Source of the DNA: Candidatus Heimdallarchaeum aukensis
GTDB lineage: Archaea > Asgardarchaeota > Heimdallarchaeia > Heimdallarchaeales > Heimdallarchaeaceae
DNA: 64,000 bases
Reading direction: 5' to 3'
Assembly: GCA_021513695.1 (NCBI GenBank)
Contig: CP084166.1
Location: forward strand, 2,112,001 to 2,176,000
Shown: one piece after another, positions 22,909 through 31,731 of the stretch
Layout of the letters: every line of letters begins with the position of its first letter
Position numbering within the stretch: the first letter of the stretch is position 1
Program-made: the position numbers and the translations under genes
The notes under the pieces: model-generated
Told to the model about the DNA's origin: nothing
Seen by the model: the letters and a program-made list of their open reading frames with translations, nothing else
The model's database searches: none

Positions 22909-23634
22909 CTATTTCCAGAATTGCCACCATTTTTTCTTTTTAGAAGAATCTTCTTTCTTATCGTCATTTCTTAGTTCTAGTGCAGCATCTCTCCAAGCCA
23001 TTTTTGTGATCATATCTCTGAATCCTTCTGGTTCGTCACCTTCTTCAATAACATATACAATGGGTATTCTCTTACGTTCAACTTCTAGTTGTCTAGCTAT
23101 TTTTCCTGCTTCATATTTTTCTTTAACTTGACAATCTTTACCTATCCATATGTAAATCTCATCATAAAAGTCTAGAACAAAGGCATCATCGGACTCAAAT
23201 AATTTATACTCAATCGGAATTTCTTTAGTAATTACCTCTCCTTTTTCATTCTGTTCAATATGTAATAGGCGAAAATCCTTCTTTACCTTTATATCTATGT
23301 GCTTAAGAAAACCAGGTGTATCTCCTCTTTTTACTTCAAATTCTATTATATCTAGAAATTCTGGAGGTTCATCACCTTGCATTATTGTTTTGATTTCTAG
23401 TTTTTTGTTTTTTTCTTCAATTACTTTGGCTGCCCAAGCTCCTACAGCTTTGTCGTCAGCATAGCTCCTTTTACCTATCCAAACCCAGAGAATGTTATCG
23501 GTTTCAACAACATAAACATCTCCATCTAAAAAAGTATAAGGAGACTTTAACTCTTTTAATTCTTTTTTAACTACATGATAAACTTGCATATAATTACTAA
23601 TGTATAGTGTAATAAAAGTCTTTTTAAGAGACAA
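22909..23634 (-). CDS. two-domain gelsolin-like actin-binding protein (2DGel-type)
   Basis: There are two gelsolin-homology repeats: 'FLDGDVYVVETDNILWVWIGKRSYADDKAVGAWAAKVIE' and 'FESDDAFVLDFYDEIYIWIGKDCQVKEKYEAGKIARQLE'. Each has the (D-x-Y/F-V/I-LD ... I/L-W-x-G) signature, and there is a basic C-terminal tail. Confidence 0.6.
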   Translation of the reverse strand: MSLKKTFITLYISNYMQVYHVVKKELKELKSPYTFLDGDVYVVETDNILWVWIGKRSYADDKAVGAWAAKVIEEKNKKLEIKTIMQGDEPPEFLDIIEFEVKRGDTPGFLKHIDIKVKKDFRLLHIEQNEKGEVITKEIPIEYKLFESDDAFVLDFYDEIYIWIGKDCQVKEKYEAGKIARQLEVERKRIPIVYVIEEGDEPEGFRDMITKMAWRDAALELRNDDKKEDSSKKKKWWQFWK

Positions 23635-25835: not shown

Positions 25836-25945
25836 AATTGTACAAAAATGTATATCGGTATAGTGAAAGTTGAAATATTGAACTGTGTCAGCAATTACGT
25901 AATTTTTGTACTCAGAACGAGAAGTAAATTACGTAATTTTTGTAC
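25836..25945. promoter_or_regulatory. repeat array upstream of the WD40 gene: two 19-bp direct repeats plus one inverted partial copy
   Basis: 'AATTACGTAATTTTTGTAC' occurs at 25893-25911 and again at 25927-25945. 'TTGTACAAAAAT' at 25836-25848 is the reverse complement of the repeat core. The core TTACGTAA is palindromic. The array lies 60-170 nt upstream of the 26007 start. Confidence 0.3.
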
Positions 25946-26006
25946 AAACTATTATTATTTTTGATTTTATGTACTCTTATATGGATAAAATTAATATTTA
26001 TCAAGT

Positions 26007-27383
26007 TTGATTGTTTTAATAATGAGTTCAATAATAGAAAAGAGAATATACCAAATTACAACTTTAAAGCATAAAGATGATGTCAATCGTGTTCTTGTTG
26101 ATGAACAATACATCTATAGTGCTTCTTCTGATAAAACTGTAAAAGTTTGGGATAAATTTACATTTGATGAGGTTGCAATATTATCTCACAAAAAACAAGT
26201 AAATGACATCGCAATAGATGATAACTATGTCTATAGTGCGACCAATGATGCTCGAGTTTCTATTTGGGAAAAAAATAGTTGGGAAAATGTGACCTCCCTC
26301 CCGCATGATGGATTTGTAGAGAGAGTGGTTGTAGATGACAACTTTGTCTATACCTCTTCTGATGATTTTTCTGTTAGAATTTGGGATAAAAAAAATTGGA
26401 AGGTAGTATTAGGGTTAAGGGTATCCGGAGAAGTGAACACTCTTTTTGTAGACAAAGATTTTCTTTATACTGGAAAAGGAACAAAAGTAAAAATCTGGGC
26501 GAAAGATAACTTTGATGTTGTCACAACGATAAAATTACCTATGTTTAGTGCTGTGCGCACGATATATGTTGATGAGGATTTTATTTACATTGGAGGAAGT
26601 GAAAAAAATGTTCGTGTATTTGATAAAAATTCAAAAAAACTTGTAGCTAAACTTCCTCATTCCGCTATTTCAATCGTTTATTCAATATATGGTGATGACC
26701 AATATATTCTTACAGGGTTAAGTGACAATAAAGTTGTAGTGTGGAAAAAAAGCGATTTCTCAAAAGTTACTTTTCTAAGTATTCCAGGACAAGTGAAGTC
26801 GGTGTTCAGTGATGGAATAAGATTTTATTCTGGTAGTTCTGATAAAAAAGTTAGAGTTTTTGAACCAGCAATTTATGAAGAAAAAAGAAAGGAGTATGAA
26901 GCAAAGAGAAAAGAACAAGAATTGAAAAAGAAAAAGGAACTGGAAGAGCAAAAAAAGAAAGAAGAGGAGAAAAGAAAAAAAGAGGAGGAGAAGAAAAAAG
27001 AAAAACTTAGAAAAGAACAAATAAAAAAAGAGAAAGAGGAAGCCAAGGAAAAAGAGAAACGACAGAAAAAAGAAGAAGAAAGAAAGAAAAAAGAAGAAGA
27101 AAAGGAGAAAAAGCGAGAAGAAAGAATTACAACAATAAGAAATATCTTGAAGAAAAGTGATTCAATTGAAATTAATCTACTGATGGAAATTCTAGATTTT
27201 TCAACAAAAGCTGCTCTGCTAAAATTTTTATATAACTTACCAGAAGATTTCCCAATAATAATTAAAGATGATAAAGTGTTTTTCTCCACCCTAAATAAAA
27301 AAGAAAAAGAAGTCCATAAAGCAATAGATGACTTATTGAAAAAATATGAAGAATGGGAGCAGACTGATGTTTTTAAAATATAG
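26007..27383 (+). CDS. WD40 seven-bladed beta-propeller protein with a long Glu/Lys/Arg-rich single-alpha-helix (ER/K-like) segment and a C-terminal domain
   Basis: There are seven ~40-aa repeats ending 'VKVWDK', 'VSIWEK', 'VRIWDK', 'VKIWAK', 'VRVFDK', 'VVVWKK' and 'VRVFEP'. An E/K/R stretch of about 85 aa follows at about aa 290-375, and then a ~90-aa tail. Confidence 0.65.
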   Translation: MIVLIMSSIIEKRIYQITTLKHKDDVNRVLVDEQYIYSASSDKTVKVWDKFTFDEVAILSHKKQVNDIAIDDNYVYSATNDARVSIWEKNSWENVTSLPHDGFVERVVVDDNFVYTSSDDFSVRIWDKKNWKVVLGLRVSGEVNTLFVDKDFLYTGKGTKVKIWAKDNFDVVTTIKLPMFSAVRTIYVDEDFIYIGGSEKNVRVFDKNSKKLVAKLPHSAISIVYSIYGDDQYILTGLSDNKVVVWKKSDFSKVTFLSIPGQVKSVFSDGIRFYSGSSDKKVRVFEPAIYEEKRKEYEAKRKEQELKKKKELEEQKKKEEEKRKKEEEKKKEKLRKEQIKKEKEEAKEKEKRQKKEEERKKKEEEKEKKREERITTIRNILKKSDSIEINLLMEILDFSTKAALLKFLYNLPEDFPIIIKDDKVFFSTLNKKEKEVHKAIDDLLKKYEEWEQTDVFKI

Positions 27384-27432
27384 TTTAAGTTAACTATCTG
27401 TGTTACACTTTTTTTTAATTTAGAAAAACTCT

Positions 27433-29010
27433 TTACGCACTCCCATAACCTCCTCCACCCGGAGTTTCAATAATTACTATATCTCCTTTCTTAATTTTTC
27501 TAGTAGTCTTTGATGGAAGTATTGAGCGATTATCTGATGAAATAATAATATTTTTGCCTTTTCTCCCAGGCATTCCTCCAAATAATCCAAAAGGAGGATA
27601 ATTTCTTCTCTCGCTTTGAATAGAAAGAGTGGCTTCTTCAGCAAGTAATTTTATTGACCGTCTAATACCGTTGCTACCTGACCATTTCCCTTTTCCTCCA
27701 GTGGACTCTAAAATAGAATATTCAAGGACTCGTAGGGGATAATAAGTCTCCAAAACTTCGATAGGTGTATTGCGAGTATTAGTCATATGGCTATGTTTTG
27801 CACTTGGGGGAGAATAATCCTTTCCTGCTCCAATACCTCCGGCAATAGTTTCATAGTAAGTAAATTGATGACCTTTATGTGTTCCTCCAATAATAATGTT
27901 ATTCATTGTTCCACTACTCGCTGCTGGAATATCATCTGGAAAAATCTGGGAAAAAACACCTAACAAAACATCAACAATTCGTTGGCTAGTTTCAACATTT
28001 CCTGCAGCTACTCCTGCAGGAGGAATAGGATCAACTAATGTTCCTTTTCTAGTGATAACCTTAAGAGGTTCATATAATCCATAATTTGTTGCGTAATCTC
28101 TAGGAACTAAAGCTCGAATAAGATAATAAGTAGCAGAAAGGGTTACTGCCAGTGGAGCGTTGATATTTCCCTCCACTTGTTTAGAACTCTTAGAATAATC
28201 AACAATAAGCTCCTCTCCATACCTTTTAACTTCAGCAGTAATAGGAATAGGCTTATCTGTTACTCCATCATCATCCATATAATCAGTGAAAGAATAGGTC
28301 TCTCCTTCAGGAATACTTTGAATTAAGCGAAGAGAAGCAGAACGAGAACGATTAATTAAAAACTCAATAACCTTTTGAACTCTGGGTAAGGAGTACTTGG
28401 ATAATAAAGATTGAAATTTTTTTTCTCCAATCTTTGTAGAAGCAAGCTGTGCTTGAAGATCTCCTCTACGTTCGTAAGGAACCCTCACATTTTCAAGAAA
28501 AACGTCTAACCATTCTTTATTCATTTTTCCCTTTCTTTCGATAAGTGTGGGTTTAATAACAAAACCTTCTTCGTGAAGAAGATACTTTCCTCCAGGCATA
28601 CTGCCTGGTACAACTCCTCCAACATCTGCATGATGACAACGATTAGCAATATATCCTACAAGCTTTTGTTCAAAAAAGATAGGTTTGACGATCGTTATGT
28701 CAGGTAGATGCGTACCTCCAGAATAAGGGTCATTGGAAATATATATGTCACCATCTTCTATATTGCTCTCACCAAAATGGTCGATAATTGCTTTAACAGA
28801 CTCGGGCATAGCTCCAAGATGAACAGGAATATGTTCTGCCTGAGCAAGAAGTCGACCTTGACTATCCATAATTGCACTGGAAAAATCTAATCTGTCTCGA
28901 ATGTTGGGGCTAAAAGCAGAACGTTGAAGAACTATGCCAGTCTCTATAGCAACGTTACGAAGAGCTTGGTTAATAACCTGAACTTCAATTAAATTAAATT
29001 GATCACTCAT
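27433..29010 (-). CDS. hyuB: hydantoinase B / 5-oxoprolinase subunit
   Basis: It shows HyuB-family similarity over its full length, is 525 aa, and is translationally coupled to hyuA by a 4-nt overlap. Confidence 0.85.
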   Translation of the reverse strand: MSDQFNLIEVQVINQALRNVAIETGIVLQRSAFSPNIRDRLDFSSAIMDSQGRLLAQAEHIPVHLGAMPESVKAIIDHFGESNIEDGDIYISNDPYSGGTHLPDITIVKPIFFEQKLVGYIANRCHHADVGGVVPGSMPGGKYLLHEEGFVIKPTLIERKGKMNKEWLDVFLENVRVPYERRGDLQAQLASTKIGEKKFQSLLSKYSLPRVQKVIEFLINRSRSASLRLIQSIPEGETYSFTDYMDDDGVTDKPIPITAEVKRYGEELIVDYSKSSKQVEGNINAPLAVTLSATYYLIRALVPRDYATNYGLYEPLKVITRKGTLVDPIPPAGVAAGNVETSQRIVDVLLGVFSQIFPDDIPAASSGTMNNIIIGGTHKGHQFTYYETIAGGIGAGKDYSPPSAKHSHMTNTRNTPIEVLETYYPLRVLEYSILESTGGKGKWSGSNGIRRSIKLLAEEATLSIQSERRNYPPFGLFGGMPGRKGKNIIISSDNRSILPSKTTRKIKKGDIVIIETPGGGGYGSA

Positions 29011-31079
29011 TTAATCTCCTCCAAAATAATGTAACCTAATCTGTTGATTCTGCCAAAAACACTTGGGGGGATAACCGTAGTAGAATCAAGCTGATCAATA
29101 ATTGCAGGACCCTCAATAATATTGCCGTCTAACAATTTCGATTTATCAAAAACAGGAGTAGAAAAAAGGTCGCCATAAAAGTTGACCTCTCGACTGGATT
29201 TATAAGCTGAATCAGGAGGACGAGAAGAACCTTCAGGAAGTTTAGATAATTTGAGTTTGGGCACTGTCCCTCTGGCTTCAACCTTAACATTAACAACTTC
29301 TACTTGTAAATGCTTGTCATGCCAAGAGTAATTTTGATGATGAAGAGAATGGAAACTGTCAACAGCTTCTGACAAAATAGAACCAGAAATAGGATAATTG
29401 ATAGGAATAGAAAGAGTGTCAGACTGACCTAAATAGCGAAGGTCTAAAGAATATGAAAAGACTTTTTCTTCTTCTTTTACATTTTCAGAAGACAAAATAG
29501 ATGATAACTCTAATTTTAAAGATTCAAGAGTATTGTTAAGATCGAGAAAATCTATGTCCTCAACAAGCTGAAGATAAGACTGGACCTTCTCGTGTTTAAT
29601 ATCACTAGCCAGTAATCCATAAGCCGACCATGCACCTGGAAAAGGAGGAACAATAACACGTTTAATGTCCAACTCTTTAGCTATATCCCAAACTTGCATA
29701 GGACCCGCACCTCCAAAACCAAGGAGAGAAAAATCGCGGGGATCTAAACCACGCTGAACAGTAACAACACGAATAGCTTGTGAAATGTTGTGATTAAGAA
29801 TCTGACGAACAGAAAGAGCTAAAGAAGTAACAGAATCGATTTCATAATCATAGGAGGAATTTCTTATTTCATCAAGTAATGATTGTAAAACAGAAAAGGA
29901 TTTGTTGACGTCAATATCCAAATTACCAGCAAAATTGCTAGGGTGAACATAACCTAAAACCATATTCGCGTCAGTTAAAGTAACTTTGTCTCCACCTAAA
30001 GAATAACATGCAGGACCAGGAAAAGCTCCTTGAGACTCAGGACCAACAGTTAACAATCCATCACTAAACTTAGCAATAGAACCTCCACCACTACCAATAG
30101 TCTCAACATCAGCCATAGGTGAAACAATCGGAAAACCGCCAAAATAGCGAGAGTTTAAAATGATAGGACTATCGATCAAGGCAGAAACATCAGTACTAGT
30201 ACCGCCAATATCTAAAGAAACAAGATGGGAAAGAGAAAGATGGTCAAGAGTCTTAGAAGCAGCAAGAACACCACCAGCAAGACCAGAATAAAGAGTTTGA
30301 ATGCCATTACGAGTGATAGTAGAAACATCACTCATACCAGTGTTAGATTGCATAATCAGAAGAGGAGAAGAAATGCCGATATCAAGAAGCTTGGAACGAA
30401 TAGTGGAAAGATAACGAGAAATAACAGGACTAACTTTAGCATTGATGATAGTAGTAACAGAGCGCTCGTATTCACCAATAGAAGGACAGATCTCAAAAGA
30501 GGGAAAGGAAAGAAAACCATGAGAACTAAGAAGAGAATGAAGATGCTGTTCATGAGAAAAATTGCGAAAAGAAAAAAGAAGAGAAATAGCTAAAACAGAA
30601 ATAGAACGAGAATGAAGGAGAGAAGAAAGAGAGTCTAAATCAAAGGTAAGAGGACGAATTACAGAACCTGAAGAATCAAGGCGCTCATCAATCTCTATTA
30701 ATAAATCAGAAGAAAAATCTAAAGGATAAGATTGAGAAAATTTGAGATTATAAAGATCAGAACGTTGTTGGCGACCAATCTCAATAATATCTTTGAAACC
30801 TTTAGTAGTCAAAAAAGCTATAGGAGGACATTTACCCTCTAAAAAAGCATTAGTACCGATAGTTGTTCCATGAATAAGCAATTCAATGTCAGAAGGACCA
30901 AAATCAAAAAGATGCATAACCTCTTGTAATCCAGAAATGATTCCAATACTAGGGTCATGAGGAGTAGTAGCAGTTTTCCAAGCTCTAATTTGACCATCAC
31001 TAGAAAGTATAATAAAATCAGTAAAAGTACCACCTGTATCGATACCAATACGAATAGGAGGACGAAGAGAAGAAAGCAT
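29007..31079 (-). CDS. hyuA: hydantoinase A / 5-oxoprolinase subunit
   Basis: The N-terminal 'IGIDTGGTFTDFI' is the hydantoinase_A signature, and the protein is 690 aa. Confidence 0.85.
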   Translation of the reverse strand: MLSSLRPPIRIGIDTGGTFTDFIILSSDGQIRAWKTATTPHDPSIGIISGLQEVMHLFDFGPSDIELLIHGTTIGTNAFLEGKCPPIAFLTTKGFKDIIEIGRQQRSDLYNLKFSQSYPLDFSSDLLIEIDERLDSSGSVIRPLTFDLDSLSSLLHSRSISVLAISLLFSFRNFSHEQHLHSLLSSHGFLSFPSFEICPSIGEYERSVTTIINAKVSPVISRYLSTIRSKLLDIGISSPLLIMQSNTGMSDVSTITRNGIQTLYSGLAGGVLAASKTLDHLSLSHLVSLDIGGTSTDVSALIDSPIILNSRYFGGFPIVSPMADVETIGSGGGSIAKFSDGLLTVGPESQGAFPGPACYSLGGDKVTLTDANMVLGYVHPSNFAGNLDIDVNKSFSVLQSLLDEIRNSSYDYEIDSVTSLALSVRQILNHNISQAIRVVTVQRGLDPRDFSLLGFGGAGPMQVWDIAKELDIKRVIVPPFPGAWSAYGLLASDIKHEKVQSYLQLVEDIDFLDLNNTLESLKLELSSILSSENVKEEEKVFSYSLDLRYLGQSDTLSIPINYPISGSILSEAVDSFHSLHHQNYSWHDKHLQVEVVNVKVEARGTVPKLKLSKLPEGSSRPPDSAYKSSREVNFYGDLFSTPVFDKSKLLDGNIIEGPAIIDQLDSTTVIPPSVFGRINRLGYIILEEIK

Positions 31080-31233
31080 GTCAAAAAAAAAGAAGAAGAG
31101 AACTTAAAGATTTTCAAAAAATAAGAAAAACCTAAAGAAAAAGAAAAAATTTTTTTATAAATCAGTTTATTAGTTGAAAATCATTTACTAAAAAGAACGG
31201 TTAATTGTTAAAAATACTTTTTATTTGTATAAA

Positions 31234-31336
31234 TGGTGGGGACGGCACGACTTGAACGCGCGACCAACAGGTATCTACGTTTTTTCAAATTATTAAACTC
31301 TGGAGCCTGCCACTCTACCTACTGAGCTACGTCCCC
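31234..31336 (-). tRNA. tRNA-Trp (anticodon CCA) with a ~27-nt intron in the anticodon arm; 3' CCA is encoded
   Basis: The reverse complement folds as acceptor GGGGACG/CGTCCCC, D-arm GCUC-AGUAGGUA-GAGU, anticodon stem GCAGG/CCUGU with loop CUCCAGA, intron GUUUAAUAAUUUGAAAAAACGUAGAUA, T-arm GCGCG-UUCAAGU-CGUGC, and discriminator A followed by CCA. It is a GC-rich island in AT-rich DNA. Confidence 0.8.
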
Positions 31337-31731
31337 TATATTAAGGTCTAAAGGCCTTCAATCTTAGTTTTTGTTTTTTTGTGGACACACAGTGATTTGT
31401 ATTTATTGTGTCTGAAATTTCTTTTAAGATTTCATTTTTAAGTTTTCTTGTTATCAACTTGACTTTGAATAGTTTTTGTATGTTGCCTTTGATATAAGAA
31501 ATACTGTTAGAGTTGTGGCTCTACTTTTTTCTTCTTTTTCTCTTTTTTTATATAAAATGAAAACAAACATTCATAAAAAATGCTTTTTTTGTTTACTTGC
31601 TCATTTATCAGTCTCAATTAGTGATTGTCAATAATGAAATTCAATAGGTAGGATGATTTATGATTTCACTCTGGAGCTTTGAATTGGCTTTCACTTGGGA
31701 AAACTGTTGAGCTCCTTTTTCTTTTTTTTCC

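Follow-up and report, generated by a model that had tools for sequence, protein, structure and literature searches.

A Heimdallarchaeial WD40 Protein with a Putative ER/K-Type Helical Spacer and a Recurrent Winged-Helix Tail

Single α-helix (SAH) domains have been found in all three kingdoms, and ER/K motifs, in which glutamate (E), lysine (K) and arginine (R) predominate, have been reported in archaea (PMC5812594). A standard laboratory linker of this type derives from the long ER/K helix of a Kelch-motif protein of Trichomonas vaginalis (PMC5552854). Work on designs in which such a helix serves as a ruler has mostly dealt with motors and scaffolds of eukaryotes. PCI-like winged helices of small size are found at the C-terminus of archaeal ESCRT-linked kinases and of Asgard ESCRT-associated proteins, and are interpreted there as oligomerization or interaction modules (Makarova et al. 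2024, PMC10936438). Here we analyze a gene in a 64,000-nucleotide stretch of the Candidatus Heimdallarchaeum aukensis genome (contig CP084166.1, positions 2,112,001 to 2,176,000; hereafter the window), the 453-residue product of which combines a WD40 β-propeller, a charged segment with the features of an ER/K helix, and a tail predicted to fold as a winged helix. An earlier note on the same DNA had proposed this three-part plan (WD40, charged segment, folded tail) and had called the resulting ruler architecture characteristic of eukaryotes and unusual in archaea. The plan is correct; the claim of rarity is overstated, because ER/K helices have already been reported in archaea (PMC5812594), and, with a propeller-type ER/K protein known from T. 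vaginalis as well, the idea of the spacer is not new. What is new is the particular architecture and, chiefly, an unannotated Heimdallarchaeia-restricted winged-helix cassette. The literature that we searched contains no report connecting single α-helices with Asgard proteins in the sense meant here, and WD40 goes unmentioned in the Heimdallarchaeum genome paper.

The propeller and the charged segment

The N-terminal part of the protein is, by its predicted structure, a canonical closed seven-bladed WD40 propeller (coordinates are collected in Table 1; residue numbers refer to the 453-residue protein and are 5 lower than those of the earlier note). Pfam WD40 (PF00400) is matched with 78.2 bits against a cut-off of 27 (E = 3.9e-22), four repeats being individually significant and the repeat period being 39 residues. 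A full-length AlphaFold2 model, built from a six-sequence alignment, places 28 strands within residues 9-282, mostly at predicted local distance difference test (pLDDT) values above 90, which amounts to seven blades of four strands each. Used as a Foldseek query, the predicted propeller retrieves seven-bladed WD40 structures including β-TrCP/FBXW11, Gβ, LIS1 and a WD40 protein of T. curvata (Thermomonospora) at E values of ~1e-20, with a template modeling (TM) score of up to 0.89 on target 5yzv_B. The seven well-formed WD repeats put forward in the earlier note are thus confirmed. The nearest sequence relatives of the WD40 part are generic WD40 proteins from bacteria and other Asgard archaea (25-32% identity), none of which has the linker or the tail. 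A search with the WD40 part only likewise returned nothing but generic WD40 proteins at no more than 28% identity, all of them devoid of linker and tail, and a full-length word-index search was dominated by E/K words and gave no useful match.

The segment that follows had been described as almost pure E/K/R over about 85 residues, with the i/i+4 charge pattern of single α-helices, and both observations hold. Its 83 residues comprise 33 K, 31 E, 8 R, 4 Q, 3 L, 2 A, 1 Y and 1 I (87% E/K/R), with no Gly or Pro, five bulky hydrophobic residues and a net charge of +10; SAHs are recognized by a run of at least ~40 E/K/R-dominated residues without helix breakers, and here such a run extends over the whole segment. 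Opposite charges pair most often at i+3 and i+4 (fractions of 0.55 and 0.52, versus 0.32 at i+1 and 0.24 at i+7), like charges coincide most often at a spacing of i+7 (54%), and Fourier analysis of the charge series gives a main period of 7.25-7.5 residues. The excess of opposite charges at i+3/i+4 over composition-preserving shuffles corresponds to z = 4.8, with none of 5000 shuffles reaching the observed value. The charges are evenly distributed around the helix without forming a basic stripe, and at 100 degrees per residue the charge moment does not exceed that of the shuffles. Where a coiled coil has a hydrophobic a/d core, the linker has hydrophobic residues or Ala at 3 or fewer of the 24 a/d positions, whichever heptad register is chosen (best a/d fraction 0.13), and therefore a coiled coil is disfavored.

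Charge pairs and charge networks were scored by a scheme of our own, calibrated on two published ER/K helices, namely those of pig myosin VI (10 nm) and of the T. vaginalis Kelch-motif protein (30 nm), with sequences taken from PMC5552854. The linker contains 1.02 i/i+3 and i/i+4 salt-bridge pairs per residue (myosin VI, 1.05; T. vaginalis, 1.02) and 1.31 three-residue charge networks per residue (1.21 and 1.28, respectively), that is, pair and network densities equal to those of the references. In composition, in the lack of Gly and Pro and in the lack of a hydrophobic seam it also resembles the wider set of ER/K helices (myosin VI medial tail, T. vaginalis Kelch protein, myosin X and caldesmon), and with the T. 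vaginalis protein it shares the joining of a β-propeller-type (Kelch) protein to a long ER/K helix. It differs from the two references in being Lys-rich, with a net charge of +10 versus 0 and -14, and from the known ER/K helices in its archaeal host; there is no sequence homology, the resemblance being compositional. Enrichment of opposite charges at i/i+3 and i/i+4, charge networks, a charge period of ~7 residues and the want of a hydrophobic heptad seam, by which SAHs are told apart, are all present. AlphaFold2 models residues 283-378 as a single unbroken helix (block pLDDT 70-89), although a single-chain prediction of this kind cannot distinguish a single helix from a dimer. This helix begins immediately past the last propeller strand and merges unbroken into the first helix of the tail, with no hinge predicted at either end. 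The ER/K single-helix reading of the earlier note stands in these respects: all of the sequence-level features that we computed agree with it, and the AlphaFold2 run returns one continuous helix. Assignment of the segment as an ER/K-type single α-helix is well supported by the sequence, from which we infer that it would be helical as a monomer. Within the window the segment is unique among all open reading frames (ORFs) of at least 100 residues.

The winged-helix tail and its family

The tail is the most informative part of the protein. It had been described as a globular domain of about 90 residues; it does appear folded, but it is 85 residues long, consists of a winged helix and a C-terminal helix, and is not anonymous, belonging to a Heimdallarchaeia-restricted, putatively PCI-like winged-helix module. 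Run on an alignment of 21 tail sequences (A1), AlphaFold2 predicts the topology H-b-H-H-b-b (H, helix; b, strand) followed by a long C-terminal helix (pLDDT 75.5), and the full-length model reproduces this fold. That the tail is a winged helix is predicted with high confidence, and that this winged helix is of the protein-protein, PCI-like type with moderate confidence. Structural comparison puts it nearest, if weakly, to PCI-type winged helices (CSN7, Rpn5, Rpn12 and DDRGK1), with scores of 6.3 for DDRGK1, 5.9 for ESCRT-II Vps22 and slightly lower values for DNA-binding winged helices. Foldseek gave no significant match for the tail, the top entries being Rpn12 and CSN3. The top entry in a profile search of PDB sequences was 8amz_T, a 267-residue proteasome-lid PCI protein (E = 0.18), and 7 of the 21 tail-family members show weak matches to Pfam PCI (PF01399), the best at E = 0.0025 and below the Pfam threshold; the window's own tail has no PF01399 match at E <= 1. 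Single-sequence PDB searches with three tails yielded noise only (acyl carrier protein, PCNA). The winged-helix core is acidic throughout the family (mean net charge -5), and the third, would-be recognition helix is hydrophobic or acidic and contains a near-invariant Trp. A DNA-binding winged helix-turn-helix has a basic or polar recognition helix and wing and a positive surface, features that the sequences of the tail family do not display; because of its acidic core and hydrophobic would-be recognition helix, the tail would be a poor candidate for a DNA binder.

With the winged helices of Rpn12, Rpn5, CSN7, CSN3 and eIF3a/c the tail would, as predicted, share both the order of elements (H-b-H-H-b-b, then a C-terminal helix) and a surface of non-DNA-binding type. 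In PCI domains, however, a helical-repeat subdomain directly precedes the winged helix, whereas here the charged helix and the propeller precede it, and other members of the tail family carry leucine-rich repeats (LRRs), transmembrane segments or other modules at that place. By the definition of the PCI family the tail falls outside it, having no helical-repeat half and sub-threshold scores. We know of no MPN partners or lid-like complex in this lineage. The proteins described in PMC10936438 are alike in that a PCI-like winged helix is placed C-terminally in multidomain archaeal or Asgard proteins; ESCRT gene context was found neither in the window nor at the tail-family loci examined. DDRGK1 (UFBP1, of the UFM1 ligase) is similar in architecture only, in that an extended helix rich in charged residues leads into a PCI-like winged helix, which in turn pairs with a second winged helix, and one tail-family member (P0022), in which N-terminal transmembrane segments are followed by an E/K/R stretch, shares this layout. 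The membrane anchor of DDRGK1 is N-terminal, where our protein has a WD40 propeller, and no sequence relationship is detectable. Homology to DDRGK1 was rejected, as hhalign of A1 against residues 187-314 of the human protein gave a probability of 0.85% and there was no Pfam DDRGK match.

An exhaustive HMMER search with the 85-residue tail among 1.84 billion representative proteins gave 20 clusters at E <= 1e-3, ~19 of which are genuine; the match in P0019, a 1682-residue repeat protein, is internal and was rejected as spurious. In every genuine match the domain sits at the extreme C-terminus, and what lies ahead of it varies widely: WD40 and an E/K/R linker in P0013, propeller-like regions followed by two tandem tail copies in P0012 and P0015, LRRs in P0023 and P0024, a TPR-like helical region in P0027 and a zinc ribbon in P0016. 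Tandem duplication of the tail occurs in four members altogether (P0011, P0012, P0015 and the truncated P0014). The domain is further found on membrane proteins (P0022, P0025, P0028, and P0029 with a TM2 domain), of which P0025 has extracellular TSP3-type repeats ahead of its transmembrane segment and the tail domain C-terminal, and as short stand-alone forms (P0017, P0018, P0020, P0021, P0030 and P0031). All members with a named organism are Heimdallarchaeial (P0018, P0027, P0032, P0034 and P0031, the last a paralogue in Candidatus Heimdallarchaeum endolithica PR6). On this sequence evidence the tail is a Heimdallarchaeia-restricted cassette behind many recognition modules. As to Asgard homologues, which the earlier note had suggested looking for, the tail is thus recurrent in the Heimdallarchaeia, and the whole architecture is present in PR6 and in the contig that encodes P0013 (L081). 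Neither Pfam nor NCBIfam holds a family for the domain, the NCBIfam search having yielded only low-complexity noise, and no relative turned up when metagenomes were scanned with the tail sequence by itself.

Two short paralogues of the family have neighbors of a particular kind: P0031 (locus L082, PR6 648453-658902) and P0027 (locus L084, from a Heimdallarchaeota metagenome-assembled genome, MAG) adjoin NosD/β-helix or TSP3-type repeat genes. Together with the TSP3 repeats of P0025, these neighbors suggest, tentatively, that the cassette may be connected with surface proteins. P0031 itself (K9W46_02620; 149 residues) opens with the LRR-like stretch VDLTPLKEL and lies 24 nt behind an unannotated ORF of 142 residues; the two (L082:4548-5450) may represent a split LRR-plus-tail gene like those of P0023 and P0024.

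Integrity of the tract and competing explanations

A scan of one genome per prokaryotic species identified a single true orthologue, in the circularized genome of PR6 (CP084167.1); the other 78 loci of the scan are generic WD40 genes, and a hidden Markov model search of all six frames found the tail in none of them. The PR6 protein also has 453 residues in the same frame, without indels, and its WD40 part is 99% identical at the protein level. Of the DNA compared, only positions 25973-31485 of the window align with PR6 (locus L002, 5954-11468) as a 5.5-kb block of 94.6% DNA identity that comprises the WD40 gene and the hydantoinase B and A genes; because both flanks are non-syntenic within the stretches compared, the block is edged by rearrangement breakpoints. 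Between the two proteins 11 of 83 linker residues are substituted, compared with 4 of 285 in the WD40 part and 4 of 85 in the tail, and the ratio of non-synonymous to synonymous change per site (pN/pS) is 0.238 for the linker, a value derived from small counts (13 non-synonymous and 9 synonymous changes), versus 0.039 for WD40 and 0.038 for the tail. The linker thus appears relaxed yet still constrained, the changes mostly retaining charged or polar character, and tract length and frame are unchanged between genomes that differ at 21% of synonymous sites. P0013 (ENA contig k141_58486) is a distant orthologue fragment with WD40, an E/K/R/Q linker of ~63 residues and a tail of 45% identity. The enrichment in charge order is also seen in PR6 (z = 4.4) and in the E/K/R segment of P0022 (z = 6.1), and to a lesser degree in L081 (z = 2.6). 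A frameshift or assembly artifact, named in the earlier note as an outcome that would undo its proposal, is refuted by the complete PR6 genome with its tract of equal length and no indel. The coding DNA of the tract is 92% purine and encodes K/E/R-rich peptide in all three frames, and one MAG assembly carries a collapsed tract, as an artifact might have it, but WD40 and tail share one frame in the window, in a Logan contig, in circularized PR6 and in the distant L081 contig, and we regard the probability of this explanation as negligible.

We consider it slightly better than an even bet that the protein is a cytoplasmic adaptor or scaffold, composed of a propeller, an ER/K spacer helix and a winged-helix tail for docking or oligomerization. 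The WD40 propeller would act as a ligand-binding platform, the ER/K helix as a spacer of ~12-14 nm that would fix the distance between the propeller and the binding target of the tail, and the acidic winged helix with its amphipathic helix may form a protein-protein docking or oligomerization module. In being attached behind many different modules the tail resembles a common box domain, through which interchangeable receptors are recruited to one complex. An assembly role for the tail is suggested by its mix-and-match partners, its tandem duplication and its likeness to winged helices that associate side by side. PCI proteins assemble into multi-subunit horseshoes by way of winged-helix contacts and a helical bundle, and of such assembly the duplication in four members is only suggestive. 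Several observations weigh against the adaptor reading. AlphaFold2 tends to render any E/K-rich stretch helical, linker length differs among distant orthologues (83 versus ~63 residues), and no conserved gene neighborhood that points to a partner was seen among the family loci examined. In L090 (Heimdallarchaeaceae MAG GCA_054383835.1), which is 99.8% identical over the WD40 gene and also carries the upstream MiaB-like gene, 65 nt of the tract are missing (window ~27046-27110), and the resulting frameshift leaves ORFs of 357 and 66 residues; either the short-read assembly collapsed here or the allele is truly disrupted. The WD40 region of L081 contains an in-frame TGA (L081:70-72), with WD40-like sequence continuing upstream of it, which could reflect a pseudogene, a sequencing error or recoding. 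Because of these disruptions in L081 and L090, the gene may be dispensable in some populations.

The charged segment itself admits other explanations. Were it an intrinsically disordered polyampholyte, it would serve as an entropic tether, flexible enough to let the folded ends move independently, in line with its low-complexity sequence, the slippage-like periodicities of its purine-rich DNA, a rate of evolution ~6 times that of the flanking domains, the variable length and the helix pLDDT of only 70-89. Yet its charges are ordered (z = 4.8; period ~7.5 residues) in a pattern indistinguishable from that of validated ER/K helices, there is not one helix breaker in 83 residues, and the same order is kept in PR6, in P0022 and, less strongly, in L081, so that we deem disorder unlikely. 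Functionally neutral expansion of a GAA/AAA-rich tract by slippage, within a lineage-specific gene undergoing decay in part of its populations, would account for the weak tandem periodicities (21, 54 and 3 nt), for the 65-nt deletion and the upstream insertion sequence in L090, for the TGA in L081 and for a breakpoint just past the tract in an ENA scaffold (L089). Set against this are the unchanged length and frame at 21% synonymous divergence, a linker pN/pS of 0.24, that is, below 1, helix-compatible charge order in 3 of 3 orthologues, and strong purifying selection on the flanking domains (pN/pS 0.04); moreover, the disruptions come from metagenomes assembled out of short reads, in which tracts of this kind often collapse. 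We find neutral expansion improbable. As for L089 (L089:1-315), its homology to the window is confined to the part from position 27156 onward, 30 nt past the tract, with unrelated sequence upstream; its hydantoinase B gene is also interrupted, and we take it for a probable chimera or for a scaffold that broke at the low-complexity tract.

Alternatively, the charged helix could be a binding surface in its own right, for nucleic acid, a cytoskeletal filament or an acidic partner, after the manner of the CAF-1 KER helix or the INCENP single α-helix. Its richness in Lys and net charge of +10 to +13, compared with 0 and -14 in the reference helices, would suit such a role, DNA- or microtubule-binding single α-helices are documented (PMC10335832, PMC4571873), and a gelsolin-domain gene lies 2.4 kb upstream. 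The basic residues form no one-sided stripe, however, the adjoining winged helix is acidic, and the gelsolin gene is separated from the WD40 gene by two unrelated genes, with no protein-family link to gelsolin seen, which leaves this explanation decidedly unlikely. A CAF-1-like DNA-binding helix in particular was rejected for want of a basic stripe and on account of the acidic winged helix. A parallel or antiparallel coiled coil, which would turn the protein into a two-headed WD40 dimer, has in its favor a heptad-like charge periodicity and the established fact that standard programs label many E/K-rich regions as coiled coil (see PMC4571873). With 3 of 24 a/d positions hydrophobic or Ala in the best register, 5 bulky hydrophobic residues in 83 and values that match those of known single helices, we judge it very improbable.

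Returning to the adaptor or scaffold reading, its most far-reaching form is one in which the Heimdallarchaeia would possess an assembly system of their own, with the tail as the docking element common to its parts. Winged-helix contacts together with a helical bundle would then link interchangeable receptors (WD40, LRR and TPR-like modules, and transmembrane sensors with extracellular TSP3 repeats), how far the WD40 receptor extends from the hub would depend on the ER/K helix, and the whole would be a free-standing prokaryotic PCI-type scaffold. In eukaryotes the PCI-type scaffold organizes the proteasome lid, the COP9 signalosome and eIF3. We advance this form as a conjecture that is itself quite unlikely to hold. 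The logic, and the logic only, would be that of eukaryotic receptor-plus-box adaptors (F-box proteins with WD40 or LRR, SOCS-box and BTB-Kelch proteins), in which a small shared domain is combined with repeat modules; the shared domain here is a C-terminal winged helix and not an F-box, and no ligase components were identified. A coronin-like reading (propeller, linker and oligomerization domain) was rejected, as no coronin-specific domain is found among the best 25 of 28 Pfam families matched. If the linker is a true single α-helix, the protein would constitute a clean Asgard "molecular ruler" between two folded domains, and at 453 residues it is small and should suit biophysics. The partners of the tail could show how protein-protein networks are wired in the nearest archaeal relatives of eukaryotes and whether winged-helix assembly of the PCI type is older than the eukaryotes. 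Should the protein turn out to be no more than an adaptor specific to this lineage whose spacer is of low complexity, the gain would be a modest one in annotation.

Gene call and genomic setting

An ORF spans 26007-27383 of the forward strand. Its TTG at 26007 is merely the mechanical start of the reading frame, in frame with and upstream of the ATG at 26022, which most likely is the true start. We prefer this ATG because two independent gene calls begin at that Met, namely the one on the Logan contig (SRR15988954, with an identical 453-residue protein) and that of the PR6 orthologue. The window is AT-rich throughout, with a G+C content of ~32%, and contains no tRNA genes over its 64 kb. The adjoining genes listed in Table 1 offer no operon context.

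Table 1. Features of the WD40 gene, its product and its surroundings in the window
Feature	Position in window	Strand	Basis or remark
Gelsolin-domain gene, 241-residue protein	22909-23634	-	2.4 kb upstream; eukaryote-signature protein typical of Asgard archaea
Isochorismatase-family gene			Between the gelsolin-domain and MiaB-like genes
MiaB-like radical-SAM gene	ends 25708		Upstream of the WD40 gene
AT-rich intergenic region, 300 nt			Between the MiaB-like and WD40 genes
Inverted element TTGTACAAAAAT	25838-25849		Related to the 19-nt repeats
Two exact 19-nt direct repeats AATTACGTAATTTTTGTAC	25893-25911 and 25927-25945		Intergenic, upstream of the WD40 gene
Coding sequence, 453 residues plus stop (most likely start)	26022-27383	+	ORF list, Logan contig, PR6 orthologue (also 453 residues)
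Seven-bladed WD40 β-propeller, residues 9-282	26046-26867	+	Pfam, AlphaFold2, Foldseek
E/K/R segment, 83 residues, 286-368 (291-373 in the earlier note)	26877-27125	+	Composition, charge periodicity
Predicted helix, residues 283-378 (96 residues, ~14 nm)	26868-27155	+	AlphaFold2
Predicted winged-helix domain, residues 369-424, H-b-H-H-b-b; acidic, third helix hydrophobic	27126-27293	+	
C-terminal amphipathic helix, residues 426-452, conserved motif I-D-x-L-L-x-x-[FY]-x-x-W-E	27297-27377	+	Alignment, AlphaFold2
Hydantoinase B and A genes			Downstream of the WD40 gene, convergent

The two copies of the direct repeat are 34 nt apart, and each contains the palindromic core TTACGTAA. They may represent a regulatory element or regulator binding site, with a putative link to the function of the WD40 gene. 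In L090, an insertion of ~1.15 kb with a DDE transposase (L090:670-1818) lies in the same intergenic region, at window positions 25936-25945 and inside the second repeat copy; the alignments that flank it overlap by 10 bp, which resembles a target-site duplication.

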